From Chitinophagales bacterium (GTDB lineage: Bacteria > Bacteroidota > Bacteroidia > Chitinophagales > LD1), in the NCBI GenBank assembly GCA_016786765.1, contig JAEUUZ010000035.1:7694-71693 (forward strand): a stretch of 64,000 nucleotides of DNA. The letters run 5' to 3'. Under the pieces are notes generated by a model that was given only the letters and a program-made list of their open reading frames with translations, had not been told where the DNA came from and searched no databases. A program made the position numbers and the translations under genes. Positions 32,419 through 46,033 of the stretch are shown piece after piece (the stretch's first letter is position 1; each line of letters begins with the position of its first letter).

Positions 32419-33597
32419 TTAACAACGTGTCTTTTTTCTGCGTGCTAACTCGGTAAGAATTAATTTCAGTTCGCGGCCCATTTGTCCTTGCACCGAAGTG
32501 TTCTCTTGTGCTCTGCGAATCAAATAGGGGATAACTTCTTTCACCGGGCCATACGGTAAATACTTGCACACATTAAATCCGGCTTTGGCCATATTGAAGG
32601 TAATATTATCGCCCATGCCTAACAATTGGGCAAACAAAATATTCGGATGATTGCGTGCAATGTTCATGTCATCAATAAGTGAAATGGCCAACAAATTACT
32701 CTCTTCCGATTGCGAAGCCACGCAAACGGTTACGATGTCCAAATTAGTAAAACACAATTGCATACCTGCGTTGAAATCCTTGTCTGTTGCAGGTTTGTCG
32801 ATATGAATAGGACTTGGATATCCCATTTCAATTGCCCGTTCGCGTTCCTTCTCCATATAGGCACCCCGCACAATTTTTACACCGTAGAAGTAGCCTTTGC
32901 TTTTTGCAGTAATAATGGATTGTTCCAAGAAGGCTAAACGGTCGTTTCTGTATAGTTGAACAGTGTTGAATACTACAGCTTTTTGTTGATTGTATTTCTC
33001 CATCATCTCTTCCACCAAACCATCCAACGCATCTTGAATCCATGATTCTTCCGCATCTACATAAAGTACAACATCATATTCTTTAGCTGCTGCGCATAAT
33101 CTTTCAAATCGATTTTTAATGCCTTGTAATTCTTGTTCTTCAGTATTCGAGAGTACTTCTTTTCGGTCCATTTTTTCAAAAAGTCCAAAACGGCCAAAGC
33201 CTGTAAGTTTGATGCAAATCGATTTTACGTGTTTGTTTTTTCCAGCAAATGAAATGGATTCCAGCGTTTGAAGAATTGTTTTTTCGAAGTCTGCTTCCGT
33301 TTCTTTTAATTCTACCCCGTAATTCAACATAGAGCCCACATTGAATGTGCTCAGAAACTGAATTGTTTTCGTGCATTCAACAAAATTTTCGCCTCCGCAA
33401 AAGTGATTGAAAACGGTGATTTTAAAAAGCGAAGAAATGGGCAAATGCAACGATAATGCAATGTTGGTAGCTGATGTACCCAAGCTAACGAGAGTATTGT
33501 TCCCAAATAATTGAAATAAAAATTTTGCTTTTTGGAGTGCCGGAGTCGATTGATATTCAAATGCGGTTTCTGTATTTTCGAACAAAGAAGTTGTCAT
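32419..33597 (-). CDS. Proline dehydrogenase family protein
   Basis: 392 aa. VDAEESWIQDA, RGAYMEKER and LLGMGD...YLPYGPVKEVIPYLIRRAQENTS motifs. Confidence 0.8.
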   Translation of the reverse strand: MTTSLFENTETAFEYQSTPALQKAKFLFQLFGNNTLVSLGTSATNIALSLHLPISSLFKITVFNHFCGGENFVECTKTIQFLSTFNVGSMLNYGVELKETEADFEKTILQTLESISFAGKNKHVKSICIKLTGFGRFGLFEKMDRKEVLSNTEEQELQGIKNRFERLCAAAKEYDVVLYVDAEESWIQDALDGLVEEMMEKYNQQKAVVFNTVQLYRNDRLAFLEQSIITAKSKGYFYGVKIVRGAYMEKERERAIEMGYPSPIHIDKPATDKDFNAGMQLCFTNLDIVTVCVASQSEESNLLAISLIDDMNIARNHPNILFAQLLGMGDNITFNMAKAGFNVCKYLPYGPVKEVIPYLIRRAQENTSVQGQMGRELKLILTELARRKKTRC

Positions 33598-33661
33598 TGT
33601 TTGGTAGTTTCAGGTGTGAAATAAAAAATAATTTTGCAACAATGCTTATTTTGCATACGAT

Positions 33662-34960
33662 ATGGGAACATTATATGTATTACTGGCTTTTATTATAGGT
33701 GCTGTTATAGGCGGTGCAATGCTTTATTTTTTGTTGAAATCGAAAAGTGAAGGCGCTATTGCCGGTGCCTTAGAGCGCAATGCAGGTTTAGAACGAAGCA
33801 ATGCAGAGCTTAAGTCTGAAATCAATACATTGCGCAATAAAACAGAAGAAGCCAATGCTGCCTTATCCGCTTCTGGGAACGAGATCAAGAATTTAAATCA
33901 CCGGTTACAAGAACAGAAAGCTGAAGTAGAGCAATTACACGCTAAAATGCAGAAGGATTTTGAATTATTGGCGAATCGTATCCTCGAAGAAAAATCAGAA
34001 AAGTTTGTACAGAGAAATGATGAACAATTAAAAGTGATTTTGGATCCGTTGAAAGAGCGTTTGTTGCAGTATGAGAAGCGTGTGAATGAAACGCATCTCG
34101 ATACCGAGCGTGAGCGCAGTGCTTTGCGCGAACAATTAAAGCAATTGACGGATATCAATAAACGAATGAGTGATGAAACCCTTAATCTCACAAAAGCATT
34201 GAAGGGAGATAATAAAATGCAAGGGAATTGGGGCGAGATGATTTTAGAGAAAATTTTGGAGAAGTCGGGTTTGCAAAAAGGGCAAGAGTATACTGTGCAA
34301 CAGAGCTTCACGAATGAAGATGGAAGTCGTTCACAACCCGATGTATTGATTAAATTACCTGAAGGGAAAACCTTGGTTGTCGATTCGAAAGTAAGTTTAG
34401 TGGCTTATGAGCGCTGTGTTTCAGCTGAAGATGAAGTGCAAAAGGCGCAATTTTTAAAAGAACATATTGCTTCGTTGCGCAATCATGTGAAGTTGTTGAG
34501 CGCTAAATCGTACCATCAATTGTATAATATTAAGTCGCCCGATTTTGTGTTGCTGTTTATTCCAATCGAATCGGCATTTGCTTTAGCGGTTACAGCTGAT
34601 AACGAATTGTATAATGATGCTTTCGATAAAAATATTATTATTGTGTCCACCTCAACGCTTTTGGCTACGCTTCGAACCGTTGCAAACGTTTGGAAACAAG
34701 AGTATCAAAGTCAAAATGCAATTGAAATAGCCCGACAAGGGGCCGATTTATACGAGAAGTTTGTTTCGTTTACTGAAGATTTAATCAAGGTAGGCAAACA
34801 AATGGACGATAGTAAAAAAACATACGCTGATGCCATGAATAAATTGTATGACGGCAAAGGCAATTTAATAAAGCGAGCAGAGAATATGCGAAAGCTGGGA
34901 TTGAAAGTGGCAAAACAACTGCCACAGGGGTTGATTGATCGCTCGGAAAACGAAGAATAA
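33662..34960 (+). CDS. rmuC: DNA recombination protein RmuC
   Basis: 432 aa. N-terminal TM, long coiled coil, and C-terminal nuclease-like domain (PDVLIKLPEGKTLVVDSK...PDFVLLFIPIESAF). Confidence 0.85.
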   Translation: MGTLYVLLAFIIGAVIGGAMLYFLLKSKSEGAIAGALERNAGLERSNAELKSEINTLRNKTEEANAALSASGNEIKNLNHRLQEQKAEVEQLHAKMQKDFELLANRILEEKSEKFVQRNDEQLKVILDPLKERLLQYEKRVNETHLDTERERSALREQLKQLTDINKRMSDETLNLTKALKGDNKMQGNWGEMILEKILEKSGLQKGQEYTVQQSFTNEDGSRSQPDVLIKLPEGKTLVVDSKVSLVAYERCVSAEDEVQKAQFLKEHIASLRNHVKLLSAKSYHQLYNIKSPDFVLLFIPIESAFALAVTADNELYNDAFDKNIIIVSTSTLLATLRTVANVWKQEYQSQNAIEIARQGADLYEKFVSFTEDLIKVGKQMDDSKKTYADAMNKLYDGKGNLIKRAENMRKLGLKVAKQLPQGLIDRSENEE

Positions 34961-34962
34961 AC

Positions 34963-35508
34963 ATGCTTACATTATTTACTTATATCATCATAGCATTAAT
35001 AGGTATTATGATGGGTACAGTCTACAAGCGCTCTGTGTCCAATATTATATTCTTACAATTTAATCCTGCAAAGATTATTCGGGTTTTTTGGATAAGTGCA
35101 GGAATTGGTCTTGTGATATGCGCCTTTCTGAGCTTTATGTCCATTCGTGCCTTTCAAAGTGCCGGTGAAGCGGAAGATAAAATGTTGCTGTTTCAAGATT
35201 ATGAATCATCCTTGATTTACTTTTTGAATTTAGGTTTGATTGTGTTGATCGTGTTAAGCAATCTATGTTCTATGTCGTCAAAGAAAGTGCTGTATTACCT
35301 ATATGCAGTATCGTTTGCGATATATGCTCTTTTTGCTATTGTCGATAACTTCTTTTTGGAAGATGTTTTTTTCCAGTTCAAGAAATTGAATCAATTGTGG
35401 CAAGGCGATTTTAATTTCGCATCCGTTAAAGGTTATTTGAGTTTGATTTTCTGTGCCGGTTTATGTGCATTTAATGCGGTGATGACGGGCTGGGGGTTAA
35501 AGAAATAA
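34963..35508 (+). CDS. Hypothetical membrane protein
   Basis: 181 aa with about 5 TM segments. Starts 2 nt after the rmuC stop. Confidence 0.4.
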   Translation: MLTLFTYIIIALIGIMMGTVYKRSVSNIIFLQFNPAKIIRVFWISAGIGLVICAFLSFMSIRAFQSAGEAEDKMLLFQDYESSLIYFLNLGLIVLIVLSNLCSMSSKKVLYYLYAVSFAIYALFAIVDNFFLEDVFFQFKKLNQLWQGDFNFASVKGYLSLIFCAGLCAFNAVMTGWGLKK

Positions 35509-36237
35509 TTAACTGTTCCAGATTTCCCAACTTTTTTCTGCTTGCGCATAAAGCATCTTCAATCCATTTATACTATGCACACCAACAGTTTCCAATTTCA
35601 ATGCAGTAGCTGTTTTAACCGGGTTGTAGACTAAGTCGATGAAGTAGTGTTGTTCGCTAAACAAATGAAATGGTAAAGGCAAAATAACATCAGTATTTGG
35701 ATACATACCCACAGGAGTGCAATTCACTAATAAAGCGTTTGTTGCAATTATCGCTTCATTGATATCATGGTAAGTAATAGATGTTGCAGTCGCAATCCTT
35801 GAAACTTTTGTTATTTCGAAGTCATATTTTTGGAGTACGTATTCTACTGCTTTTGCCGATCCACCTGTACCAAGTATTATTGCGGTTCTTTGTTTTTTTA
35901 AAGGATAGTGTTGCAGTAAAGTTTGTTCAAAGCCAAAACAATCGGTGTTGTATCCTTTTGTTTTTCCATTGTTAAATGTAATGGTGTTAACTGCTCCAAT
36001 TGTTTTTGCTATTTCGTCAACTTCATCTAAATACGGTATGATGGCAGTTTTATAAGGAATGGTTACGTTCAATCCTTTTAACAATGGATGTTGTTGAAGC
36101 CAAGCCGGAAATGCCTCAATAGAAGACAATTCAAATAAATCGTAGTGCCCCGAAATGCCTAATGTATTTAGCTTTTGGGTGAAATACTCTTTCGAAAAAG
36201 AATGGGTAAGTGTTTTTCCAATCAATCCGAAATGCAT
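35509..36237 (-). CDS. aroE: Shikimate dehydrogenase
   Basis: 242 aa. HSFSKEYF, NVTIPYK, GAVNT, YNTD and GTGGSAKAV motifs. Confidence 0.85.
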   Translation of the reverse strand: MHFGLIGKTLTHSFSKEYFTQKLNTLGISGHYDLFELSSIEAFPAWLQQHPLLKGLNVTIPYKTAIIPYLDEVDEIAKTIGAVNTITFNNGKTKGYNTDCFGFEQTLLQHYPLKKQRTAIILGTGGSAKAVEYVLQKYDFEITKVSRIATATSITYHDINEAIIATNALLVNCTPVGMYPNTDVILPLPFHLFSEQHYFIDLVYNPVKTATALKLETVGVHSINGLKMLYAQAEKSWEIWNS

Positions 36238-36249
36238 GTTGTTGTGGCT

Positions 36250-36891
36250 TTACTTTTTAGTGTAGTTTTTGAAGGCTCCAATTACAATTGGCAATACCGA
36301 AATGCCAATAATACCGAACACAACCAATTCAAAATTCTTTTTAACTATTTCAAAATTACCAAAGAAATAACCCAATAAGGTAATGCTTACAACCCATAAC
36401 ACAGCGCCTAAAATGCAATTCAGAATATATTTCGAATAGGTCATGCTACCTGCACCGGCAACAAATGGAGCAACTGTTCTAACAATAGGCACGAAGCGCG
36501 CCATAATTACCGTTTTGCCTCCATGTTTTTCGTAAAATTCATGTGTTTGCTCAATGTACTCTCGCTTAAAAAAGAGAATACGCTCTTTCGATTTTACCCA
36601 ATCGCCTAAAAATTTTCCTACAAAGTAATTGACGTTATCGCCTAACAAAGCTGCCACAATCAATAGCGGAATAATTATCCAAACGTTTAATGCTCCTGTG
36701 GCTGCGGCCAATGCACCGGCAGCAAATAATAACGAATCACCGGGTAGAAGAGGCATAACAATAAGCCCTGTTTCCACAAACACAATTAAGAAAAGTATCA
36801 CATACGTGAGTGTGCCATATTGGTTAACAATATCCGTAAGATGTCTGTCTAAGTGTAGAATAAAATCTATGAGAAAGTGTATGAATTCCAT
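36250..36891 (-). CDS. DedA family membrane protein
   Basis: 213 aa. VFVETGLIVMPLLPGDSLLFAAGALA and RFVPIVRTVAPFVAG motifs. Confidence 0.85.
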   Translation of the reverse strand: MEFIHFLIDFILHLDRHLTDIVNQYGTLTYVILFLIVFVETGLIVMPLLPGDSLLFAAGALAAATGALNVWIIIPLLIVAALLGDNVNYFVGKFLGDWVKSKERILFFKREYIEQTHEFYEKHGGKTVIMARFVPIVRTVAPFVAGAGSMTYSKYILNCILGAVLWVVSITLLGYFFGNFEIVKKNFELVVFGIIGISVLPIVIGAFKNYTKK

Positions 36892-36943: not shown

Positions 36944-37831
36944 TTAACAGCCACCCATGGCTATAATTTTTAAACCAATAATAATAGCCCATATGATCCA
37001 CTTAAAATTGCTGTAATCAAAGCCGGATGAATTTTCTGTGCTACTGTTGTTGCCTGTGTAAATGTTATGATTGTTTGTAATGGTTTCCTTTAAATGGGAA
37101 GAAATTTCTTCAATCTGATTTAACTGGGAACTTACCGCCTTACAATCGTGAAAATTAGTGCGCTGAATTGAAACAGTAAGATTGATAAGCGGGATGATTA
37201 AATCTTCTTTCGTTTCGTAAAAATCGTCAGGAAGGTTATTGATAAAAATACTCCAGTCGGAGCTAATCCAGTGGATAATTTTCGGACGCATAGTCATGAA
37301 ATTATCTTTACTGGTGTTTTTCAGATAGCGAATATTTTCATCCAAAAAAATTCGAATGGAACGAAAGGCTTCTTCTCTGTCAGCCCCGATGATAAAGTCT
37401 TCGAAAGAAAGTAAATAGCCTAGATTGTCGAATTGTAGTGCATTAATGTAATTCCGAGCAACTACGTTGAAAGACACTGCAAAGAATGGCGAAATAAATC
37501 CATCGAACACAGGGTTATTAAAAAAAGCATGAATCTCTTTGTTGAAATTGGGGTAGGAAAATTGATTGTCTTCCAAAAAGGCTAATAGATGTTTGCTTTC
37601 CCAAATTCCTTTATGAAATACTAGTCGTTCAGTGAAATTTGGACTATCCAATTCTTCAAAAACATCAGTTTTATTGTAACTGTAATTGTCGATTTCAATA
37701 ATAGCGCTTGGCGAAAAGTTGAACTCCGCATTGAGTTGCTTTTTAACACGCTGCACATTAATCTCTCCATCTACATCAATCTCGGAATGTTGAAGTAAAC
37801 GTACAATGGATATGTATTGCTTGTTAGCCAA
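36944..37831 (-). CDS. Hypothetical tail-anchored protein, third gene of the Hsp70-like operon
   Basis: 295 aa. The only upstream start codon is TTG at 37829-37831, overlapping the Hsp70 stop by 8 nt. Single C-terminal TM (WIIWAIIIGLKIIAMGG). No HPD tripeptide. Confidence 0.5.
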   Translation of the reverse strand: MANKQYISIVRLLQHSEIDVDGEINVQRVKKQLNAEFNFSPSAIIEIDNYSYNKTDVFEELDSPNFTERLVFHKGIWESKHLLAFLEDNQFSYPNFNKEIHAFFNNPVFDGFISPFFAVSFNVVARNYINALQFDNLGYLLSFEDFIIGADREEAFRSIRIFLDENIRYLKNTSKDNFMTMRPKIIHWISSDWSIFINNLPDDFYETKEDLIIPLINLTVSIQRTNFHDCKAVSSQLNQIEEISSHLKETITNNHNIYTGNNSSTENSSGFDYSNFKWIIWAIIIGLKIIAMGGC

Positions 37832-40364
37832 TGCCTGTACCTTTAAAGTCGTTATTGAAATTGAATCTTACGCGCTTCAAGAGCGAGGAAAGATGATAGA
37901 CATGCCTTCTGAATTCTGGATACTTTTCACTTTCAAGAGCGGTATCTGCCAATCGCATAATCGATTTTGCTGCACTGTAATCTTTGTATTCACCGGCATC
38001 CGCATTTTTATACTCAATATAAATGCTAATTAAAAAGCTGGTTGTATTACTCATCGCTTTCCAATACAAATCATGCAATTGTTGAAGCTTGTTTTCAATC
38101 ACCGAAACGTTTTTCGATTTAATAAACGAAGGTTCCGATTGTTCTATTTTCTTGTATTGCGAAAGCATTTCATCTTTAATGAAATCGGCACTGCTAATCA
38201 ATGCGAATACCTCCTCTTTTCTTGTCATGTAGGTTTCAATTAACATGGCAATTCGTTCGTTTCCGCCTAATTTGTCGGCATCTTGTGATATCCGTAGTAC
38301 CTTTTGTGCAATCACGTATTTGTCGTCAGACTTATCATTATCCTTCAACTTAAAAAGCGCTTTCTTAACTTCATGTAATTCGCTGAGTAGGGCAGAGGCT
38401 CTGATTTCCCAAATATCATCTTCGTTATATTGAAACTGGCGAACGGTTTCCGTTAAATCAATTTCCAATTGGATAAACTGCTCTTTCAAACGACCTATAT
38501 TCACTTGTTTTTCCGCAATCGAAAATACATTTTTGAATTCTTGTTGTGTCATTACCAAAAACACGGAAGTGTTCAGAACTCTCGAGTCGGTGAGGTGAAG
38601 TTGGATTTCAATATCTGAACCTTTAATCAAGTCGGCCTGCAAATCTTTACCCGAAATTTCGATGCAGCCTATAGTTAGATTAGAAGAAGCCCTTGAATTT
38701 TTATCGCCCTCTAAAATGTTGATGATAATAGATTCCGGAGAGCCTTTGGTAATGGTTTTAGATATTTCGCGATACAAGGTTCGTTTTTGCGGCAATAAAC
38801 TATTGCGTTCAAAAATCACTTCCAATTTAGTGGTTTTATTTTCCATGTCATCCACTTCAATACAAATGTCGTGGGGAAGTGGTTGCCCATCAATATTGTA
38901 CACTCCTTGTGCTATTGAAAGTTCTTTGGCGAAATCTTTTAACTCTGTTTTATGTTCATCATACACATGCAATGTAAAAGAATTGTTGTGTGATGATATT
39001 AACGGTAAGAACTCCGTTTTCTTTGCCTTCAAAGGAATTAAACCTGTATCGAAACCGCCATCAGCTCGTGTAATACGATAATATTTATTCTCGTATCCTC
39101 CGCTGCAAGCAATCAATAAAACCTCTTCCGCATCTCTACTTGAACGATTATAGGATACATCAACCGATAAGTCAATTGGATTCAAATCAATCGAAGAGAG
39201 AATGTCTTCTATTACTTTGTCCGTCTCTATTTCTGATGCAACTTTCACCGAAGGTTCATAAAATTTATTAGCCGCATAATAAGCAGCTCCAATGGCAATT
39301 GAATTGGTTGGGTCGATGGAGAAGTTAACCGGAATTCTTGTTTGTTCCATTAATTCATGGCGTACTTGTGGTATAAAAGTACTTCCTCCAACTAAAATAA
39401 TTTGATGAATATCTTGTGCAGTTAGTTGATTATTGTCCAATATCTTTTTGAGCAAAACAATTGTCTCATTGATGATAGGTTGGAAAATTTCATCTAACTG
39501 TTCTTTCGTAATATTGATGTAGAAATCGTGTTTAGTGTTGTCGATATCTGCACTGAATTCTATAACCGTAGAAGGCGATTGTGATAACTCTTTTTTCGCT
39601 TCTTCAGCATAATACATGATTTGATAATACAGCATCTCATACTTGCCATACTTCACGCGAAATTCATCTTCGAAGTTTTCAATTTTCGTTTGACGGATAA
39701 TCTCAGGTACAATTAGTTGATCAACAATGGCCGTATCGAAATTCATTCCACCTAAAAAGTTGTTCCCTTCGTGATCGAGCACTTTAAGCTCTCCTTCTGT
39801 TGACTTTACTAGTGCAACATCGAAGGTTCCGCCTCCTAAATCGTACACCAACCAATAGCCTTCACTCTTTTGTGTTTCGCCATCGTTAGTGTTGAAGAAC
39901 GCTAAACTGGCCGCAATAGGTTCTTGCAGTAAGAACACATCTTTGAATCCTGCTTCTTTTCCGGCTTTCAATGTAGCGTTACTTTGCATACTATCAAAGG
40001 AAGCAGGAATAGTTATAACACAGGCTTCCGGCACTTCTTCACTTTGCACAAAGTTTTTGAGCTCTTTGAGGATTAAGGTAGACAACGCTATAGGAGTAAC
40101 ATTATCATCGATGTTAACTACATAAAATTTTTCATCTGTTCCCATTTTGCGTTTGAATCCGCCAAACACATTTACAGCATCTTTGGTCAAATATTCACGC
40201 GCTTTATCACCAATAAGTATACGATCTTTTCTATACGCCACCACCGAGGCAAGTGTTTCTTTTTGTCCAAACGGATTCTTAAATACACGCACTTTATTGT
40301 TCTCGTATTTTGCAATCAAAGAGTTTGTTGTGCCAAGGTCTATGCCAAAATTTACCGCTTTCAT
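37824..40364 (-). CDS. Non-canonical Hsp70 family ATPase with long C-terminal extension
   Basis: 846 aa. GIDLGTTNS, DLGGGTFDV and LVGGSTFIP actin/Hsp70 NBD motifs in roughly the first 370 aa. SBD-beta-like ILEGD...IGCIEISG...GSDIEIQLHLTD segment, then a helical tail. Confidence 0.8.
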   Translation of the reverse strand: MKAVNFGIDLGTTNSLIAKYENNKVRVFKNPFGQKETLASVVAYRKDRILIGDKAREYLTKDAVNVFGGFKRKMGTDEKFYVVNIDDNVTPIALSTLILKELKNFVQSEEVPEACVITIPASFDSMQSNATLKAGKEAGFKDVFLLQEPIAASLAFFNTNDGETQKSEGYWLVYDLGGGTFDVALVKSTEGELKVLDHEGNNFLGGMNFDTAIVDQLIVPEIIRQTKIENFEDEFRVKYGKYEMLYYQIMYYAEEAKKELSQSPSTVIEFSADIDNTKHDFYINITKEQLDEIFQPIINETIVLLKKILDNNQLTAQDIHQIILVGGSTFIPQVRHELMEQTRIPVNFSIDPTNSIAIGAAYYAANKFYEPSVKVASEIETDKVIEDILSSIDLNPIDLSVDVSYNRSSRDAEEVLLIACSGGYENKYYRITRADGGFDTGLIPLKAKKTEFLPLISSHNNSFTLHVYDEHKTELKDFAKELSIAQGVYNIDGQPLPHDICIEVDDMENKTTKLEVIFERNSLLPQKRTLYREISKTITKGSPESIIINILEGDKNSRASSNLTIGCIEISGKDLQADLIKGSDIEIQLHLTDSRVLNTSVFLVMTQQEFKNVFSIAEKQVNIGRLKEQFIQLEIDLTETVRQFQYNEDDIWEIRASALLSELHEVKKALFKLKDNDKSDDKYVIAQKVLRISQDADKLGGNERIAMLIETYMTRKEEVFALISSADFIKDEMLSQYKKIEQSEPSFIKSKNVSVIENKLQQLHDLYWKAMSNTTSFLISIYIEYKNADAGEYKDYSAAKSIMRLADTALESEKYPEFRRHVYHLSSLLKRVRFNFNNDFKGTGIG

Positions 40365-40379
40365 TTGTCTCGTTTATTA

Positions 40380-40685
40380 TTACTCCACTATTACTATTGC
40401 TTTCTGCACCAATTGCATTTGCGCTCCTATTTTTTGATAGATAATAGGTTTCAACACTTTTGTGATTTTCATTTTGGAGTTGATATTTCCTACAATGCTT
40501 GCTTCACAATCGGTTCTCGATTCTTGGTAAGGTTCATGTATCGGATTTTTCACAACATAGCCTTCCTCTTCAAAAATCGCAAACAGTCGATTTAAATTCC
40601 TTTCGAAAGGGGTTGTTTCGCTTAGGTCGTTGAGTTTGGTTTGAATTTCAAAAACCTGATTTATTATAGGAATGGAGTTTTGCAT
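40380..40685 (-). CDS. Mini GrpE-like protein (putative nucleotide exchange factor lacking the long N-terminal coiled coil)
   Basis: 101 aa. The C-terminal GYVVKNPIHEPY...CEASIV...KITKVLKPIIYQK...LVQKAIVIV aligns by eye to the GrpE beta-domain pattern (G..FDP..HEA....V..V.qkGY......R.A.V.V). Its stop is 15 nt upstream of the Hsp70 start. Confidence 0.45.
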   Translation of the reverse strand: MQNSIPIINQVFEIQTKLNDLSETTPFERNLNRLFAIFEEEGYVVKNPIHEPYQESRTDCEASIVGNINSKMKITKVLKPIIYQKIGAQMQLVQKAIVIVE

Positions 40686-40834
40686 TTCATTGGTTTATGG
40701 AATGCTAAATATAAATGCTTTATCTTTTTTCTGTAATAAAATTGTCCGAATGGCTGTTAAAACAACCTTTTTATTGCTTTTTTGCATGAAGCCCACAATT
40801 TTTCCCGATAAGTTTTTAAAACTCGTAAAATGTT

Positions 40835-40842
40835 TAATTTTG
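40835..40842 (+). promoter_or_regulatory. Candidate Bacteroidota -7 promoter box (TAATTTTG) for clpS
   Basis: Matches the TAnnTTTG consensus. Lies 26 nt upstream of the clpS ATG. Confidence 0.25.
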
Positions 40843-40867
40843 AATAGGTCTATAAATTATAACTGCT

Positions 40868-41146
40868 ATGCAATTGCCCGAAATAGAAATAGAAGAAGTT
40901 GTTGAGTTGGATCTCGACAACGCATTAGAAAACAAACTCATTGTTCATAACGATTCGGTAAACACCTTTGATTGGGTGGCTGATGCGTTGGTTGATATTT
41001 GTAAACACACCCAAGAACAAGCTGAGCAGTGTTCTTACATCATTCATCACAAAGGGAAATATGCGGTGAAACACGGTCCACTTTCACGTCTTCGCACAAT
41101 GCGCAATGCCATTGTTGAACGCGGAATTAATGCTACAATCGAATAA
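40868..41146 (+). CDS. clpS: ATP-dependent Clp protease adaptor ClpS
   Basis: 92 aa. LIVHNDSVNTFDWVADALVDICKHTQEQAEQCSYIIHHKGKYAV matches the ClpS core pattern. Confidence 0.85.
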   Translation: MQLPEIEIEEVVELDLDNALENKLIVHNDSVNTFDWVADALVDICKHTQEQAEQCSYIIHHKGKYAVKHGPLSRLRTMRNAIVERGINATIE

Positions 41147-41147
41147 C

Positions 41148-42737
41148 ATGGCACACCAATACTTTTCCGAAGAACATGATTTGTTTCGCCAGTCGGTTAA
41201 ACAATTCATTCAACAAGATATTGTGCCTAATATCAAGCAGTGGGAGAACGACCAAAAAATCCCGCGGGAAGTATTCCGGAAAATGGGTGAATTGGGTTTT
41301 CTGGGAATCAATTTTCCAGAGGCTTATGGGGGGACGAATAACGATTTTTGGACTACAGTAGTGTACTTAGAAGAATTAGCGAAGGCAGGTTTTGCAGGAC
41401 TTTCAGCTGCTGTGTCTGTCCATCAGTTTATGGCTACTAATCATATATTACAAGCAGGGAGCGAGGAATTGAAACAACGCTATTTGCCGAAATCTATTTC
41501 CGGAGAATACGTTGGAAGTATTGCTATTACTGAGCCCGGAGCAGGTTCAGATGTGGCCAATATTCTTACTACGGCTGTTCGGGATGGCGATTTCTATGTT
41601 ATCAATGGAAGTAAGACCTTTATCACCAATGGTGTTTACGGAAATTTTGTAACTGTTGCTTGTAAAACTGACCCTTCTGCCGGAGCAGCCGGAATCAGTT
41701 TAATTGTAGTGGATGCCGGAACAGCAGGCTACACCTCCAATAAACTCGATAAAATGGGTTGGAAATCATCTGATACCGGGGAGTTGTTTTTTGATAATGT
41801 GCGTGTGCCGGTGGGGAACCGTGTTGGACAAGAGGGACAAGGGTTTTTCTACATTATGGAAAGCTTTCAGTTGGAGCGTTTGGTTACCGGAATTTTAGGT
41901 GTAGCCGGTAGCGAAAGTGCCATTGCCATTACATTGAATTATTTAGATGAGCGTTCAGCGTTCAATAAACCGCTTTCCAAATTTCAAGTATTACGTCATA
42001 AAATGGTGGATTTAATTACTGAATTGGAAGTCACCAAACAGTTTGTCTATCACTGTTGTTGGAAACATGCTAATGGTCAGTTTGCCGTGAAAGAATGCAG
42101 TATGGCTAAGTTGAAGGCATCTGAATTAAGCAAAACCATTGTCGATGAGTGTTTACAAGTTTTTGGCGGTTACGGTTATATGACGGAGTATCCAATAGAG
42201 CGCGCCTATCGAGATGCCCGTGTGGGAACTATCGTGGCCGGAACAACAGAAATCATGAAAGAAATTATTGCCAAAACAGTCATCGACAAAGTAAGTTACG
42301 AATCGGTGTACGAGAATATGCGACAAGGTGCTGAAGCAGCAGCTGAGGTTGAAAAAGCCGAGACGCCACTATCTGCTACTTTAAATACTCCACAAGACTC
42401 AACAAAACAAACAACTCCGGAAACGGCCCGAGAAATTTTGTATTCGCTCCCTAATCGTTTAAAGATAGATAAAGTGGATGCCCAAACAGCAGGCGTTTTT
42501 CATTTTAAAATGGATGGAGAAGGCGATTTTACCATTACAATAAAAGACAAAAAGGTAACGGTGGAGGAAGGTCTTGTTGGTGATCCTACTTGCGAAGTAA
42601 AAGCCAAAGCTGCAGATTATGCCGATATTGAGCTAGGTAAAACTAATCCCCAGATGGCATTTATGATGGGAAAAATCAAGATTTCCAATCTTGGCGAGAT
42701 GATGAAATTTATGGGATTGTTTGCCAAAATTAAATAG
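41148..42737 (+). CDS. Acyl-CoA dehydrogenase fused to a C-terminal SCP2 sterol-carrier domain
   Basis: Start moved to MAHQYFSEEH (1 nt after the clpS stop). ACAD motifs (ITEPGAGSD, FITNG, GGYGYMTEYPIERAYRDARV), a roughly 50-aa linker, and an SCP2 pattern (DYADIELGKTNPQMAFMMGKIKISN). Confidence 0.8.
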   Translation: MAHQYFSEEHDLFRQSVKQFIQQDIVPNIKQWENDQKIPREVFRKMGELGFLGINFPEAYGGTNNDFWTTVVYLEELAKAGFAGLSAAVSVHQFMATNHILQAGSEELKQRYLPKSISGEYVGSIAITEPGAGSDVANILTTAVRDGDFYVINGSKTFITNGVYGNFVTVACKTDPSAGAAGISLIVVDAGTAGYTSNKLDKMGWKSSDTGELFFDNVRVPVGNRVGQEGQGFFYIMESFQLERLVTGILGVAGSESAIAITLNYLDERSAFNKPLSKFQVLRHKMVDLITELEVTKQFVYHCCWKHANGQFAVKECSMAKLKASELSKTIVDECLQVFGGYGYMTEYPIERAYRDARVGTIVAGTTEIMKEIIAKTVIDKVSYESVYENMRQGAEAAAEVEKAETPLSATLNTPQDSTKQTTPETAREILYSLPNRLKIDKVDAQTAGVFHFKMDGEGDFTITIKDKKVTVEEGLVGDPTCEVKAKAADYADIELGKTNPQMAFMMGKIKISNLGEMMKFMGLFAKIK

Positions 42738-42819
42738 TATTGATTATGAAAAACAATCGTTGATTGAAATTGTTATAATTCCGAATAGGCATTAAATAAC
42801 TTCCGTAAAACGATTGTAT

Positions 42820-44271
42820 ATGAATAGATTAGCAGTACTCTTTTTATTATTAGTTTCAGTTGTAACGTCAAAGGCATCTGTTATTGATAGCTTGATTCTC
42901 AAAAGATCCTATACTAAAGTTCAGTTAGATTCAGTGTTAAATGCCAACGGTATTCCACCTTTTATTATTGGTACCATCTACGATATTGATATTTATAAAG
43001 TGAGTTACCATACCGCGTCCTACGATTCAACACCGGTGTTAGCGTCTGGCATGCTCGCCATACCTAAAAATACCTCTTGTCGTTTACCATTAGCTAGTTT
43101 TGCCCATGGAACAGAAACACTAAGAGAATCGGTACCTTCCAGAATAGTTGGTGGCGAAGCTGTTATAGGAATGGTTATGGCTTCTTTAGGCTATGCGGCC
43201 ACACTTCCCGATTATATTGGTCTTGGTGATGGTCCCAAAAATCTATTGCATCCCTATCAACATGCGTTAACGGAAGCCAGCGCAACTATTGATTTACTTC
43301 GTGCAGCACGTGAAGCGTCAACAACAGCAGGTTTTAGATTAAACGGCCAATTGTTTCTTACTGGATATTCTCAAGGGGGACATGCAACAATGGCTACACA
43401 CCGAACAATCCAAGAGCAGTTAGCAGGCGAGTTTACGGTTACTGCTTCCTGTCCAATGAGTGGTGCTTACGATATGTCGGGCGTAATGGTTGATGTTATG
43501 TTATCCGATTCCAATTATGCTGTACCCGGATATTTGCCCTATTTAGTGTTTAGTTGGAATCAGAAATACCAATTTTATCCGAATGTTAGCGATTATCTTG
43601 CAGTTCCCTACGACACTTTACTGCCACCACTGTATAATGGAAACTTTGGCATGGGGTACATTAATTCAAAAATGCCTGCTGTGCCAAAAAAGATTTTTAA
43701 ACAAAGTATGATCGATAGTTTTACTGTGAATTTGAATCACCCATTTCGAAAGGCATTAGCTGAAAACGATGTATACAATTGGACTCCAACAGCTCCGGTT
43801 AGAATTTTATTTTGCAGGGCAGACGAGGAGGTCTCTTGGGCAAATTCTGTAAAAATGATTAATCAATTTAAGGCGAACGGTGTTCAAAATGCCGATACAG
43901 TTTGTGTAAATGAAACACTTTCGCATTTTCAGTGTGCTCAATTTGCGATCTTAAATATGAAGGATTATTTTCAATCTTTTGTAGCATTAGATAGTTGTAA
44001 CGTTAATGCTATAGAGGAGGTACATCAGGGAATTGTAAACATTTATCCAAATCCTGCCAATAGCAGTATTTCAATTTTCATGGAGAATGATGTACGCTAT
44101 AATTCAATAGAAGCAATTGATGCATTAGGAAAGGTCTATGTTCTTCCAGTTCAAAAAGGAACTAAGTATGTTGTATCAGATGTGAGTTCATTAGCAAACG
44201 GTCTTTATTCATTGCGAATTGCGAATAACAAAACATATTCCGTTATAGGAAGAATAAACGTTCAGCATTAA
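42820..44271 (+). CDS. Secreted lipase-like alpha/beta-hydrolase with T9SS C-terminal sorting domain
   Basis: ATG at 42820 (MNRLAVLF). GYSQGG nucleophile elbow. Paralog of 9961-11196. C-terminal IVNIYPNPANSSISIF...GLYSLRI T9SS CTD. Confidence 0.7.
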   Translation: MNRLAVLFLLLVSVVTSKASVIDSLILKRSYTKVQLDSVLNANGIPPFIIGTIYDIDIYKVSYHTASYDSTPVLASGMLAIPKNTSCRLPLASFAHGTETLRESVPSRIVGGEAVIGMVMASLGYAATLPDYIGLGDGPKNLLHPYQHALTEASATIDLLRAAREASTTAGFRLNGQLFLTGYSQGGHATMATHRTIQEQLAGEFTVTASCPMSGAYDMSGVMVDVMLSDSNYAVPGYLPYLVFSWNQKYQFYPNVSDYLAVPYDTLLPPLYNGNFGMGYINSKMPAVPKKIFKQSMIDSFTVNLNHPFRKALAENDVYNWTPTAPVRILFCRADEEVSWANSVKMINQFKANGVQNADTVCVNETLSHFQCAQFAILNMKDYFQSFVALDSCNVNAIEEVHQGIVNIYPNPANSSISIFMENDVRYNSIEAIDALGKVYVLPVQKGTKYVVSDVSSLANGLYSLRIANNKTYSVIGRINVQH

Positions 44272-44275
44272 TCGA

Positions 44276-46033
44276 TTAGAAGACAACGTATTTATATGTT
44301 GTATAACGTGTATTTGATTTTGCCCGAATCAAGTATACTCCTGGCGATAGCATATCCTTTTTATCGAAAGAAGAACCTTCTAATTGATACATTAACTGGC
44401 CGGTGCTATTGTACATGGAATAATTTTCAACGGCTATTGTCGGGTCATCGGAATGAAGTATAAAACCTTTTGATGAATACATCAATTCCGCTGCATAAAG
44501 TTCGGGTTCTGCAATTCCTGTATAGCCACATGGGTTGTTGACTAACGTTTTGTAGCCCCTTTGAAGAAGAAAATAATAAAGGGTACAAAAATGTTTCCCC
44601 CCGAATAGTAAGGTATCTGCCTGAAGCAATGCATCAGCAACTTGCGGATAAGTCATATTCGATGCAAAAAGATACATGGTTTGCAACACGAGGCTATCGG
44701 TAGTGGCTTTACCCAATTCATCGTGAATTTGCATGAGCGTTGACGACCACATTTCGCCATCTTTATAGATATTGTTTGATATGTTTTGCGGGTAACGTTT
44801 AGTGGAATTCACAACGCGACCATTCCAAAATGGAGGGTTCCCATCCCAATTAAAAACTTTTGTCCAATTATAAGCATTTATCGATTTTGAATAGGATGCG
44901 GCAAAATAGTCGCAGGTGCCTTCATCAATGCTATTTCTATCTTGCCCCGAATTGGTTGAAGGTGCAGCATTATAGGAAACAAAATGCGTGTATTCATGAA
45001 TCACCACATCTGCATCCTCTGCGTCATCTACCCCGCCTGTTCCAAAGTAGATAGTATTGGGTTCATTAAAGAAAGAATTATCGCCCGTTCCTCCATGCGG
45101 ATCGGGATATACTAATTGGCTGGTTGCATTAAAACCAAGTGAACGAATATAATCACTTTGTTTCGTCAAATGATAATAGGCATTCACATCCTCAAAACCT
45201 GACTGATGGCGGGTATAGTCAAAAAGAGGCGATGAGCTTGTAACAGGTAAAATACCATCTCCATTATTATCGCGCAATTCAATATATTGATTTTTTAAGC
45301 TGAAGCTAGCGCCATCGAAATGAGCTTTGAATGTTTTGGTTTGTCGCTGATTGTTCAAAACAACAACATCAGAATCGTTGAAATCTTGATAGCCCCCTCC
45401 ATACACAACATTTGCAGATGTTAGCGGATCGGGGTTAAACACTTTGCCTGTTACCAAAGAATCTTGGGCAAGAAAGGAAGATGTTATTCGCGTTTTAAGA
45501 CTTTCGTGTTGATCAATAACGACTTCGTGTGCAATTTTATTATTGTCGTTATACACAATTTTTACAGCCGGTACAAGAGCAGTTGCAGATGCAATAAAGC
45601 AATATGTTTGGTGTGCGTTTAGATTAGTAAGGTTTGCATTCAGCCAACGTTCCGAAAGTGCATCCATTATCGCTGCAGGAAAAACAGTGGGTTTTTGTAA
45701 TGCATTTACATCAATTAAATTGGAATAAACACTTGCAATTTTACCTTGCTTTGAAACATTTACTTTTATATCGGCATGATAAATAGGTATTGCCATATAC
45801 TCCTGTTGAAATAGGTAATGAAACGCTGTAGGGCTCTCGGTTTTAGCAATTAACGCAAATGTAGATGCCCCTATTTCATTCGTATAGTTGGAGTTGATAA
45901 AATTTAAAATTTCCTTTTCGTCCGATGCATTTCTTATCAAAACTGGCGAGTAGGATACCTTACACGCTTCTTCTTGCGCATACCCATAAACAAAAACAAA
46001 CATTAAAGTCAGTAAGCAATAAATACTTTTCAT
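44276..46033 (-). CDS. Secreted zinc metalloprotease (HExxH) with T9SS C-terminal sorting domain
   Basis: 585 aa. Signal peptide, VVIHEYTHFVS zinc motif (possibly fungalysin/M36-like, family uncertain), C-terminal MYNSTGQLM...GVYLIRAKS T9SS CTD. Confidence 0.6.
   Translation of the reverse strand: MKSIYCLLTLMFVFVYGYAQEEACKVSYSPVLIRNASDEKEILNFINSNYTNEIGASTFALIAKTESPTAFHYLFQQEYMAIPIYHADIKVNVSKQGKIASVYSNLIDVNALQKPTVFPAAIMDALSERWLNANLTNLNAHQTYCFIASATALVPAVKIVYNDNNKIAHEVVIDQHESLKTRITSSFLAQDSLVTGKVFNPDPLTSANVVYGGGYQDFNDSDVVVLNNQRQTKTFKAHFDGASFSLKNQYIELRDNNGDGILPVTSSSPLFDYTRHQSGFEDVNAYYHLTKQSDYIRSLGFNATSQLVYPDPHGGTGDNSFFNEPNTIYFGTGGVDDAEDADVVIHEYTHFVSYNAAPSTNSGQDRNSIDEGTCDYFAASYSKSINAYNWTKVFNWDGNPPFWNGRVVNSTKRYPQNISNNIYKDGEMWSSTLMQIHDELGKATTDSLVLQTMYLFASNMTYPQVADALLQADTLLFGGKHFCTLYYFLLQRGYKTLVNNPCGYTGIAEPELYAAELMYSSKGFILHSDDPTIAVENYSMYNSTGQLMYQLEGSSFDKKDMLSPGVYLIRAKSNTRYTTYKYVVF

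Follow-up and report, generated by a model that had tools for sequence, protein, structure and literature searches.

Can an Hsp70 chaperone operate without a J-protein if a dedicated exchange factor and a membrane protein stand at its side? This question is raised by three minus-strand genes in a 64,000-nucleotide stretch of DNA (the window) from a Chitinophagales MAG. The genes encode a mini-GrpE-like protein of 101 aa (g1, positions 40380-40685), an Hsp70 of 846 aa (g2, 37824-40364) and a predicted membrane protein of 295 aa with a TTG start codon (g3, 36944-37831). An earlier note on this DNA had described them as packed like a single operon, and the open reading frames, the 15-nt gap that separates the stop of g1 from the start of g2, and the 8-nt overlap of g2 with g3 were all reproduced here. 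The same -8 overlap was seen again at many homologous loci, and its recurrence supports the TTG start of g3.

The 182-nt intergenic region (40686-40867) that separates g1 from the divergent clpS gene (40868-41146, plus strand) presumably contains the operon promoter, as judged from a reading of the sequence. A scan of this region for σ70-type promoters yielded 19 sites vs. 17.5 expected, Bacteroidota promoters being outside the models of the tool. The identity of clpS was confirmed by Pfam and its divergent position was as noted earlier; the idea of a proteostasis neighbourhood did not hold up, clpS not being conserved as a neighbour of the module. Similarly, the two spot counts that had suggested AT-richness (20 and 31 G+C of 60) were correct, but had no wider significance. 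With a GC content of 0.366 (14th percentile), the region falls only about 1 SD short of the average for windows of equal size (mean 0.384, SD 0.018), and the GC3 of its genes (0.36-0.37) is in line with that of the neighbouring genes. The AT-richness is therefore real, but not meaningful.

The AlphaFold (AF2) model of g1 (pLDDT 90.5) contains two helices (residues 4-18 and 25-40) and a six-strand β-domain (43-100), i.e. two four-helix-bundle helices followed by a compact C-terminal β-domain, as in GrpE. In a Foldseek comparison with the PDB, the top 11 matches to this model were all GrpE chains, from six entries, including chains solved together with Hsp70 (8gb3, 4ani, 9blt, 1dkg). Their TM scores ranged from 0.41 to 0.59, vs. 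0.19 or less for the first non-GrpE structure, with weak E-values (0.04-0.9). The best match, 8gb3_E, had a probability of 0.99, a TM score of 0.59 and 21% identity over 97 columns. Sequence profiles gave no such link: the Pfam GrpE model (PF01025) matched neither g1 nor any of 30 relatives at E-values up to 10, the g1 family profile (1306 clusters at 90% identity, members of 96-136 aa) retrieved no GrpE from the PDB sequences, and hhalign of g1 against a manually entered E. coli GrpE sequence was not significant. The GrpE likeness proposed in the earlier note is thus borne out by predicted structure and not by HMM, and, as modelled, is at the level of the fold only. The suggestion that g1 is a GrpE devoid of its long coiled coil was also right in part. 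The long N-terminal helix of GrpE, which serves as dimer stalk and thermosensor, is missing, but g1 begins at the bundle helices and still has both of them. The bundle helices and β-domain, which touch DnaK in the 1DKG complex, are the parts of GrpE that g1 retains.

The first 365 residues of g2 (39270-40364) form an Hsp70 nucleotide-binding domain (NBD), as a profile check made clear (PF00012, E 1.1e-63), and the three ATPase motifs noticed earlier were found at residues 7 (GIDLGTTNS), 175 (DLGGGTFDV) and 324 (LVGGSTFIP). The Pfam match ends at profile position 373 of 599, the substrate-binding domain (SBD) not being seen by this HMM. We aligned 35 members of the g2 family to E. coli DnaK (DnaK numbering is used for conserved residues). 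D8, T11-N13, K70, E171, D194, the GGG motif, T199 and D201 are invariant in all 35. The catalytic site of g2, which is a full Hsp70, is intact. The GrpE-signature loop has its full length in the family, and of the two salt bridges across the cleft the lower one, K55-E267, is preserved (R/K in 31/35 and E in 35/35 members). The upper one, R56-E264, has disappeared, a change that leads to higher intrinsic ADP release in other Hsp70s (PMC8215388).

If g2 is a functional Hsp70, where is its J-protein? The absence of both an HPD tripeptide from the trio and a DnaJ-like gene from the window, as first noted, was upheld by motif and profile scans. Neither HPD nor HPE occurs in g1, g2 or g3, and a six-frame translation of the 64-kb window contained no match to a J-domain profile that was built from manually entered sequences and that detects even E. 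coli DjlB and DjlC (E 3e-7 and 5e-5, respectively). Across 87 module loci, the same profile picked up one gene only, a CbpA-like gene that is unrelated to the module. Pfam DnaJ was absent from 42 relatives of g3, and hhalign of g3 gave probabilities of 0.4% with J-domains and 0.5% with DjlB/C. No J-domain gene accompanies the module at the loci examined, although a J-protein may be encoded elsewhere in the genome, beyond the 64 kb of the window.

The surface of g2 on which a J-domain would dock is remodelled. In DnaK, R167 and Q378 bind the Asp of the HPD motif, the linker residue L391 is contacted by its His, and the acidic residues E206, D211 and E217 also take part in J-docking (PMC8215388). 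In the g2 family, R167 is replaced by V, F, L or I in 33/35 members (R is not among the residues listed), Q378 by Y or F in 35/35, N170 by Q in 35/35, T173 by I or V, and E217 by K or R in 32/35. Both contacts to the HPD Asp are thus replaced across the family, and the linker that contains L391 is absent. HscC, in contrast, keeps R151, R167, N170, T173 and D326, all five of which are replaced in g2; the loss of J-docking residues that HscC has kept reinforces the absence of a J partner.

The remainder of g2 also departs from the DnaK plan. The columns corresponding to residues 389-392 of the DnaK linker (386-VKDVLLLD-393) are gapped in 33-34 of the 35 family members, and a variable linker of low confidence (residues 366-395, 39180-39269, pLDDT below 50) stands in its place. 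Without the hydrophobic linker, g2 may not have the allosteric coupling of DnaK. An extra β-domain of six predicted strands, which has no known relative, follows (residues 399-486, 38907-39170; AF2 strands E34-121 in model numbering); hhalign related it neither to the DnaK SBD nor to the second β-domain of g2. The latter (residues 499-615, 38520-38870) is an eight-strand, DnaK-like substrate-binding β-domain (SBDβ): each of the top 50 Foldseek matches to the g2 SBD model was a structure that includes an Hsp70 SBD (probability 1.00, E ~1e-7), and residues ~515-600 were aligned by hhalign on DnaK 408-488. Next comes a helical lid of ten predicted helices (residues 623-827, 37884-38498; H258-462 in model numbering, pLDDT mostly >90), which is roughly twice as long as that of DnaK. 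The protein ends in GTGIG (residues 842-846, 37827-37841), a motif conserved in homologues, with G-T-G-[ILV]-[GS] forming the C-terminal end in 67 of 79 full-length sequences; it may conceivably serve for docking.

The third protein consists of a conserved N-terminal domain (residues 1-275, 37007-37831), presumably cytoplasmic and a predicted Hsp70 partner, and a C-terminal hydrophobic segment (residues 276-295, 36947-37006) detected by a hydropathy scan, in which W281 and the terminal C295 are invariant in the family alignment. The g3 family comprises 861 clusters at 50% identity. Its common plan is a conserved N-terminal domain and a single TM segment, which may be followed by a C-terminal extension; in nearly every one of the 150 matches listed, the conserved domain was at the N-terminus. 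Since many relatives have 200-290 aa beyond the TM segment, the term tail-anchored used in the earlier note suits the short forms and not these longer ones. The conserved domain has no Pfam or PDB similarity, and nothing recognisable as a toxin, a nuclease or a pore was found in g3.

To what extent do the three genes belong together? The trio recurs across Bacteroidota. In a survey of loci from about 76 genomes, g1 preceded g2 in the same orientation at 72/75 loci, their start and stop codons often overlapping or lying a few nt apart. A g3-family gene was present in 64/76 loci, within 200 nt of g2 in 61, with 40 on the same strand, 22 convergent and two or three paralogues at 9 loci. The genes on either side, mostly housekeeping ones, show no conservation, so that g1, g2 and g3 travel as a unit, in agreement with the co-conservation looked for at the outset. 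The lack of g3 from 12/76 loci (g1 is missing from 3/75) shows that it is not strictly obligatory. A four-gene variant exists in Parvicella and on a Chlorobium plasmid, where the Hsp70 shows translational coupling with a TerB-domain protein; the Chlorobium phaeovibrioides plasmid variant consists of a g3-like gene, g1, g2 and a TerB gene. DjlA, a co-chaperone of DnaK, combines a membrane-anchored TerB-like domain with a J-domain, a TerB-Hsp70 link that the variant echoes. The TerB protein of the variant, however, is free-standing; it lacks a J-domain, no TM segment was noted in it, and the three-gene form of the window does not include it.

The layout recalls E. coli hscC with djlB and djlC, minus the J-domain, as had been noticed: both systems have a specialised Hsp70 beside C-terminally membrane-anchored partners whose genes are duplicated and convergent, both NBDs have a lobe-IB deletion, and non-essential HscC has a presumed membrane site of action, as would the module (PMC8215388). 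That g2 is an HscC orthologue and g3 a degenerate J-protein is nevertheless highly improbable and already largely refuted. The NBD of g2 shares 34.6% identity with that of DnaK and less, 29.1%, with that of HscC, and K55-E267 is kept in g2 where HscC has V and L. The residues that g2 has kept and lost form a pattern opposite to that of HscC, and g3 lacks a J-domain; in our reading, the module is not the HscC/DjlBC system. The J profile, although sensitive to DjlB and DjlC, matches no g3 relative, and the g3 partners, unlike those of HscC, are not homologous to DjlB/C. As the earlier note remarked, g2 is also much longer (846 vs. 550-580 aa), by about 280 aa, with its extra β-domain and long lid. 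Lastly, the GrpE signature is missing from HscC, which reportedly does without an exchange factor (PMC8215388), whereas the module has a dedicated predicted one. Could this factor be something else, a GrpE-like fold reused as adaptor, inhibitor or substrate mimic, with nucleotide cycling intrinsic to g2? The lack of a sequence-level link to GrpE, the missing stalk helix and the lost upper salt bridge would fit such a role. However, the parts that g1 has kept, which in 1DKG are those in contact with DnaK, dominate the structural match, g2 retains the signature loop and lower bridge, and the g1-g2 coupling is tight in 72/75 loci. We consider this explanation quite unlikely.

A role in conflict is a more serious, though still unlikely, alternative. 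Here, g2, together with g1, would sense proteotoxic load or a phage protein and g3 would be a chaperone-controlled membrane effector, in the manner of abortive infection, with the diversifying g3 paralogues and C-terminal domains reflecting an arms race. The patchy accessory distribution with non-conserved flanks, and the duplication and highly variable C-terminal part of g3, are consistent with this, as are the neighbours of two copies, a type I RM methylase, a PDC-S06 protein (E 1.8e-231) and IS21 on the C. phaeovibrioides plasmid and a HepT/nucleotidyltransferase pair in Parvicella. Hsp70 homologues are known in conflict systems: CnuD of CoCoNuT, linked to McrB/McrC, has a long helical domain after its NBD/SBD, as does g2 (PMC11090510), and GAP1-N2 GTPase systems, mainly of Actinobacteria and Firmicutes, contain an Hsp70, a GrpE and a DnaJ-FNIII protein, an accessory operon with its own GrpE like the present one (PMC7159879). 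The ATPase motifs of CnuD are degenerate, however, while those of g2 are invariant, and no McrB/McrC, GTPase, tubulin, HEPN or DnaJ-fusion gene recurs beside the module in about 80 loci. Neither g1-g3 nor their relatives significantly matched a PADLOC-DB v2 model, and among 136 nearest neighbours no more than about 5 have a defence-like character, the others being housekeeping genes. In our reading, the module is not a known defence system. The copy in the window is flanked by clpS, a VTT/DedA-family gene and aroE, its composition is native, and its g3 has none of the effector domains named above. A search of Hsp70 reviews and conflict-system papers turned up no description of the trio, in keeping with the earlier remark that the unit is uncharacterised.

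The explanation that we favour, and consider probable, is that the three genes encode a self-contained, accessory, membrane-targeted Hsp70 machine with its own predicted exchange factor and a non-J partner. It resembles DnaK-DnaJ-GrpE in its intact ATPase, DnaK-like SBDβ and lid, GrpE-signature loop and lower salt bridge, and in having a GrpE-fold partner, encoded immediately upstream of the Hsp70. It differs in the lack of a J-protein gene at the locus, of R167/Q378, of the VLLLD linker and of the upper bridge, in its ~100-aa GrpE-like protein without the long helix, its extra β-domain and the predicted membrane protein encoded by the third gene. We propose that the machine would work on the cytoplasmic side of the inner membrane, where g2 would hydrolyse ATP and bind polypeptide via its β-sandwich under the enlarged lid, and g1, as a minimal GrpE-type exchange factor, would free ADP and reset it. 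The conserved N-terminal domain of g3, a putative single-pass membrane protein, would be the dedicated partner of g2, either recruiting and activating it at the membrane in the stead of a J-protein, or being its dedicated client. In the long forms of g3, the post-TM domain, presumably periplasmic, could link the machine to the envelope. The role of the machine may lie in quality control of the envelope or of membrane proteins, or in signalling, and less in general folding.

A bolder reading, which we offer tentatively, is that the N-terminal domain of g3 represents a new class of J-replacing co-chaperone or, in a variant of this idea, that the module is a chaperone-gated latent membrane effector of the abortive-infection type. 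As a J replacement, g3 would dock on the remodelled surface of g2, which has hydrophobic residues at the sites of R167/Q378 and a new β-domain where DnaK has the linker, and would trigger ATP hydrolysis at the membrane, the mini-GrpE then resetting the cycle. If true, this would make for a complete J-independent Hsp70 cycle, and the trio may thus show how an Hsp70 works without its normally obligatory J-protein.

The three minus-strand open reading frames of the module were recovered at exactly the positions read earlier: gene 1, mini-GrpE-like, at 40380-40685 (101 aa, annotated 'hypothetical', MBL7800802.1), gene 2, Hsp70-like, at 37824-40364 (846 aa, annotated 'Hsp70 family protein', MBL7800801.1) and gene 3 at 36944-37831 (295 aa, TTG start, annotated 'hypothetical', MBL7800800.1). 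Their coupled packing was also confirmed, with a gap of 15 nt between genes 1 and 2 and an overlap of 8 nt between genes 2 and 3. This -8 overlap was seen again in many homologous loci, which supports the TTG start of gene 3. Promoter and terminator scans gave results at chance level, using a σ70-type model that does not cover Bacteroidota promoters. The GC content of the region is 0.366, about 1 SD below the mean of same-size windows (0.384, SD 0.018), and its GC3 is like that of the neighbouring genes. The AT-richness remarked on in the earlier note is therefore no sign of foreign origin, an idea that composition leaves unsupported.

Pfam and NCBIfam recognised the Hsp70 nucleotide-binding domain (NBD) at residues 6-365 of gene 2 (E ~1e-63), in agreement with its reading as an Hsp70-like ATPase, and the three ATPase motifs were found at residues 7, 175 and 324. 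Neither database gave a match beyond residue 365. A model of residues 366-846 (pLDDT 86.8), for which 40 family members were aligned, begins with ~30 disordered residues. It continues with two β-domains, one of six strands (residues 399-486) and one of eight (499-615), and then ten helices (623-827). The top 50 PDB fold matches of this model were all Hsp70 substrate-binding domain (SBD) structures (Foldseek; probability 1.00, E ~1e-7), and hhalign aligned residues ~515-600 to DnaK 408-488. With hhalign, the first β-domain showed no similarity to the second or to the DnaK SBD; its origin by duplication of the SBDβ was rejected (probability 0.4%). MAFFT had set the DnaK SBD against this extra domain, a placement dropped in favour of that given by Foldseek and hhalign. 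In 67 of 79 full-length homologues the protein ends in a conserved motif, G-T-G-[ILV]-[GS] (residues 842-846 of gene 2; 37827-37841, minus strand), which recalls the EEVD docking tail found in eukaryotic Hsp70s. A PHROGs search with the NBD returned generic phage DnaK-like families only.

To see which functional residues are kept, we aligned 35 members of the gene 2 family with E. coli DnaK, whose numbering is used here. All catalytic and phosphate-binding residues were invariant. The R167 position is occupied by V, F, L or I in 33/35 members, with R never listed and F144 standing there in the window's gene 2, and the Q378 position by Y or F in 35/35; N170 is replaced by Q in all 35, T173 by I (V in one member) and E217 by K or R in 32/35. 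The hydrophobic VLLLD linker is missing in 33-34 of the 35. R167 and Q378 form hydrogen bonds with the HPD Asp of the J-domain, and the linker is contacted by the HPD His and drives ATPase stimulation (PMC8215388). That R167, Q378 and the linker are lost together throughout the family argues against any canonical J-domain acting on gene 2. The GrpE-signature loop is full length and the lower salt bridge, K55-E267, is retained, the upper bridge being lost; the GrpE-type features that are kept fit a dedicated mini-GrpE. Gene 2 is a complete Hsp70, rewired and probably active.

Gene 1 had been described by eye as a GrpE without the long coiled coil, a likeness that held for the fold and not for the sequence. 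No GrpE signal was detected by Pfam in gene 1 or 30 relatives, the family profile gave no GrpE match against all PDB sequences, and hhalign failed against an approximate E. coli GrpE sequence. The model built with 37 relatives (pLDDT 90.5), on the other hand, places a pair of helices ahead of a six-strand β-domain, and every one of its top 11 PDB fold matches is a GrpE chain, the sources being M. tuberculosis, Geobacillus, Thermus, human (GrpEL1) and E. coli. For the top match, 8gb3_E, the probability was 0.99 and the TM score 0.59, with 97 aligned columns at 21% identity; the first non-GrpE match had a TM score of 0.19. Because the Foldseek E-values of the GrpE matches are modest (0.04-0.9), the assignment rests on rank, TM score and context. 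Gene 1 is the counterpart of the C-terminal ~100 residues of GrpE (two four-helix-bundle helices and the β-domain) and has no long N-terminal helix. The family comprises 1306 clusters at 90% identity, one UniRef entry carrying the automated name 'Molecular chaperone GrpE'. Judging by the model, gene 1 is a GrpE fold with no detectable GrpE sequence signal.

A direct homologue search with gene 3 returned 77 proteins, those named being all from Chitinophagaceae, and three distant loci seemed to lack the gene. The notion that gene 3 is not conserved was overturned by a family HMM, which placed relatives next to gene 2 in most genomes. Their arrangement varies: same-strand copies whose stops overlap, convergent copies directly past the gene 2 stop, 2-3 copies in tandem, or a position upstream of gene 1. 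A profile search of 1.84 billion representatives found 861 clusters at E <=0.001. In the best 150 of these, a conserved ~280-residue domain is N-terminal in nearly all, and lengths fall into two classes, ~290-350 aa and ~480-585 aa. The hydrophobic segment of the family lies at about residues 265-290. The C-terminal TM anchor proposed previously is therefore a property of the short forms (here residues 276-295; 36947-37006, minus strand), whereas the long forms extend beyond this segment by a variable region of 200-290 aa. In short forms, the tail anchor contains W281 and, as the final residue, C295, both invariant, and the long forms have a conserved Cys soon after the TM segment. In a Ferruginibacter MAG (L017, 6436-6837), gene 3 is broken, probably through pseudogene formation or an assembly frameshift, into pieces of 76 and 44 aa, each recognised by the family profile.

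No recurrent Pfam family was found in 42 gene 3 relatives; a DUF7225 match (E 0.005), seen in 1/42 and with no literature, was treated as chance. Sequence searches identified no solved structure, the profile matching only designed helical repeats among PDB sequences. As noted earlier, the trio lacks HPD, and we found neither HPD nor HPE in any of its proteins. By eye, VQRVKKQLNAEFNFS at the gene 3 N-terminus resembles helix II and HPD of a degenerate J-domain. This candidate was rejected: hhalign gave a probability of 0.4%, Pfam DnaJ was missing in the 42 relatives, and a J profile that detects DjlB and DjlC matched no gene 3 relative. Only one true J-domain protein was found in 87 loci, in Edaphocola flava (L028, 2359-3258, minus strand). 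This 299-aa CbpA-like protein has HPD and is encoded on the strand opposite to the module, ~540 nt upstream of it; its presence there is probably a coincidence.

With each GTDB species represented by one genome, a scan detected relatives of gene 2 in at least 346 species. We analysed the best 80 of these species' loci together with loci fetched earlier, spanning Chitinophagales, Saprospiraceae, Cytophagales, Bacteroidales and Flavobacteriales. Chitinophaga, Olleya, Ferruginibacter yonginensis and Taibaiella are among the carriers. Gene 1 lies directly upstream of gene 2 on the same strand in 72 of the 75 loci with room for it, and a gene 3 relative is present in 64/76 (<=200 nt from gene 2 in 61), bearing out the co-conservation of the trio. 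In three loci (L059, L060 and L074), a full-length gene 2 homologue of 836-841 aa has neither gene 1 nor gene 3 within 3-5 kb, six-frame searches included; the Hsp70 can therefore persist alone.

The trio is flanked in the window by clpS, an acyl-CoA dehydrogenase gene, a VTT/DedA-family gene and aroE. The clpS ORF (40868-41146, ORF call and Pfam) and the called start of the acyl-CoA dehydrogenase (within 40868-42737; 543 aa, C-terminal SCP2 sterol-transfer domain) overlap by 41 nt, and the true start of the dehydrogenase may lie further downstream. Two convergent genes encode secreted enzymes. The one at 42814-44271 specifies a LIP-family lipase whose C-terminal sorting domain is of the type IX secretion kind, and the other, at 44276-46033, an M36 fungalysin-like metallopeptidase bearing an FTP propeptide motif. 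Downstream of the module, 32419-36891 is housekeeping (proline dehydrogenase, RmuC, shikimate dehydrogenase and the VTT/DedA-family membrane protein, whose gene is 52 nt past the gene 3 stop on the same strand); an unannotated hydrophobic protein of 181 aa, probably multi-pass, is encoded at 34963-35508. None of the genes of 32419-36891 is conserved beside the module in other loci. Clustering of 445 flanking ORFs revealed no recurrent neighbour, the largest cluster covering 5 loci, and the proteostasis neighbourhood suggested by clpS was not upheld.

The earlier note had left open whether the module sits in defence islands or among housekeeping genes. Its nearest neighbours are mostly ordinary (DNA ligase, DAG kinase, DsbA, histidine kinases, TonB receptors), with ~5/136 defence-like, a weak enrichment, and no module protein matched PADLOC. 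A four-gene variant, encoding a 535-aa gene 3-like protein, a 122-aa gene 1, an 830-aa gene 2 and a 155-aa TerB protein whose gene overlaps the Hsp70 stop by 4 nt, occurs in Parvicella tangerina (L002) and on Chlorobium phaeovibrioides plasmid CM018434.1 (L089, 1-16369). The plasmid copy adjoins a type I RM methylase, a PDC-S06 candidate defence protein (E 1.8e-231) and IS21, which shows lateral mobility and at least one defence-island setting, and is evidence of transfer beyond Bacteroidota. Hsp70s are known from conflict systems, namely CoCoNuT CnuD and GAP1-N2 GTPase systems with Hsp70, GrpE and DnaJ fusions (PMC11090510, PMC7159879); these differ from the module in partners, taxa and motif states. 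On balance, we consider it improbable that the module is a conflict or defence system.

Bacterial Hsp70s are classified as DnaK, HscA and HscC, of which HscA and HscC need no exchange factor (PMC8215388), other derivatives being termed unexplored 'dark matter' (PMC13580251). The likeness to HscC with DjlB and DjlC raised previously extends to gene architecture, with tail-anchored partners duplicated and convergent in both systems, and not to the J-domain, residue pattern or homology. E. coli HscC keeps the J-interface residues that were compared (R151, R167, N170, T173 and D326) and has lost the salt bridge, the opposite of gene 2, whose NBD shares 34.6% identity with DnaK and 29.1% with HscC. 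Gene 3 showed no homology to DjlB, DjlC, YbeR, YbeU, YbeQ or YbeT (every E >0.2). Membership of the HscC family, failing on each defining feature tested, is essentially refuted. In E. coli K-12 (L090, 5416-11394, djlB-ybeT-ybeU-djlC-hscC), djlC is convergent to hscC, HPE stands in place of HPD in the J-domains of DjlB and DjlC, and the DUF1266 gene ahead of each djl gene overlaps its start.

We rather favour, with some confidence, a self-contained accessory Hsp70 machine. Gene 2 would be an active ATPase with a peptide-binding domain, gene 1 its minimal GrpE-type exchange factor, and gene 3 a membrane-anchored partner in the place where a J-protein would stand. That gene 1 is not an exchange factor seems quite unlikely given its fold matches, despite the failed sequence comparisons. 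The action of gene 3, whether as activator, recruiter, client or effector, and the purpose of the system are inferences. A literature search, mainly outside subscription journals, found no description of this Hsp70 family.

The standard teaching is that Hsp70s and J-domain proteins are obligate partners. The module is a fourth Hsp70 type beside DnaK, HscA and HscC, widespread in Bacteroidota, and gene 2 has been rebuilt exactly at the surface and linker of J-domain action, its catalytic residues intact. Should gene 3 activate the ATPase, the module would define a minimal GrpE as well as a new class of co-chaperone, both of which would help in understanding Hsp70 allostery; should gene 3 instead be a gated effector, chaperone-based logic would be added to bacterial immunity. 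Under either reading, the module is a compact three-gene system that is directly testable.
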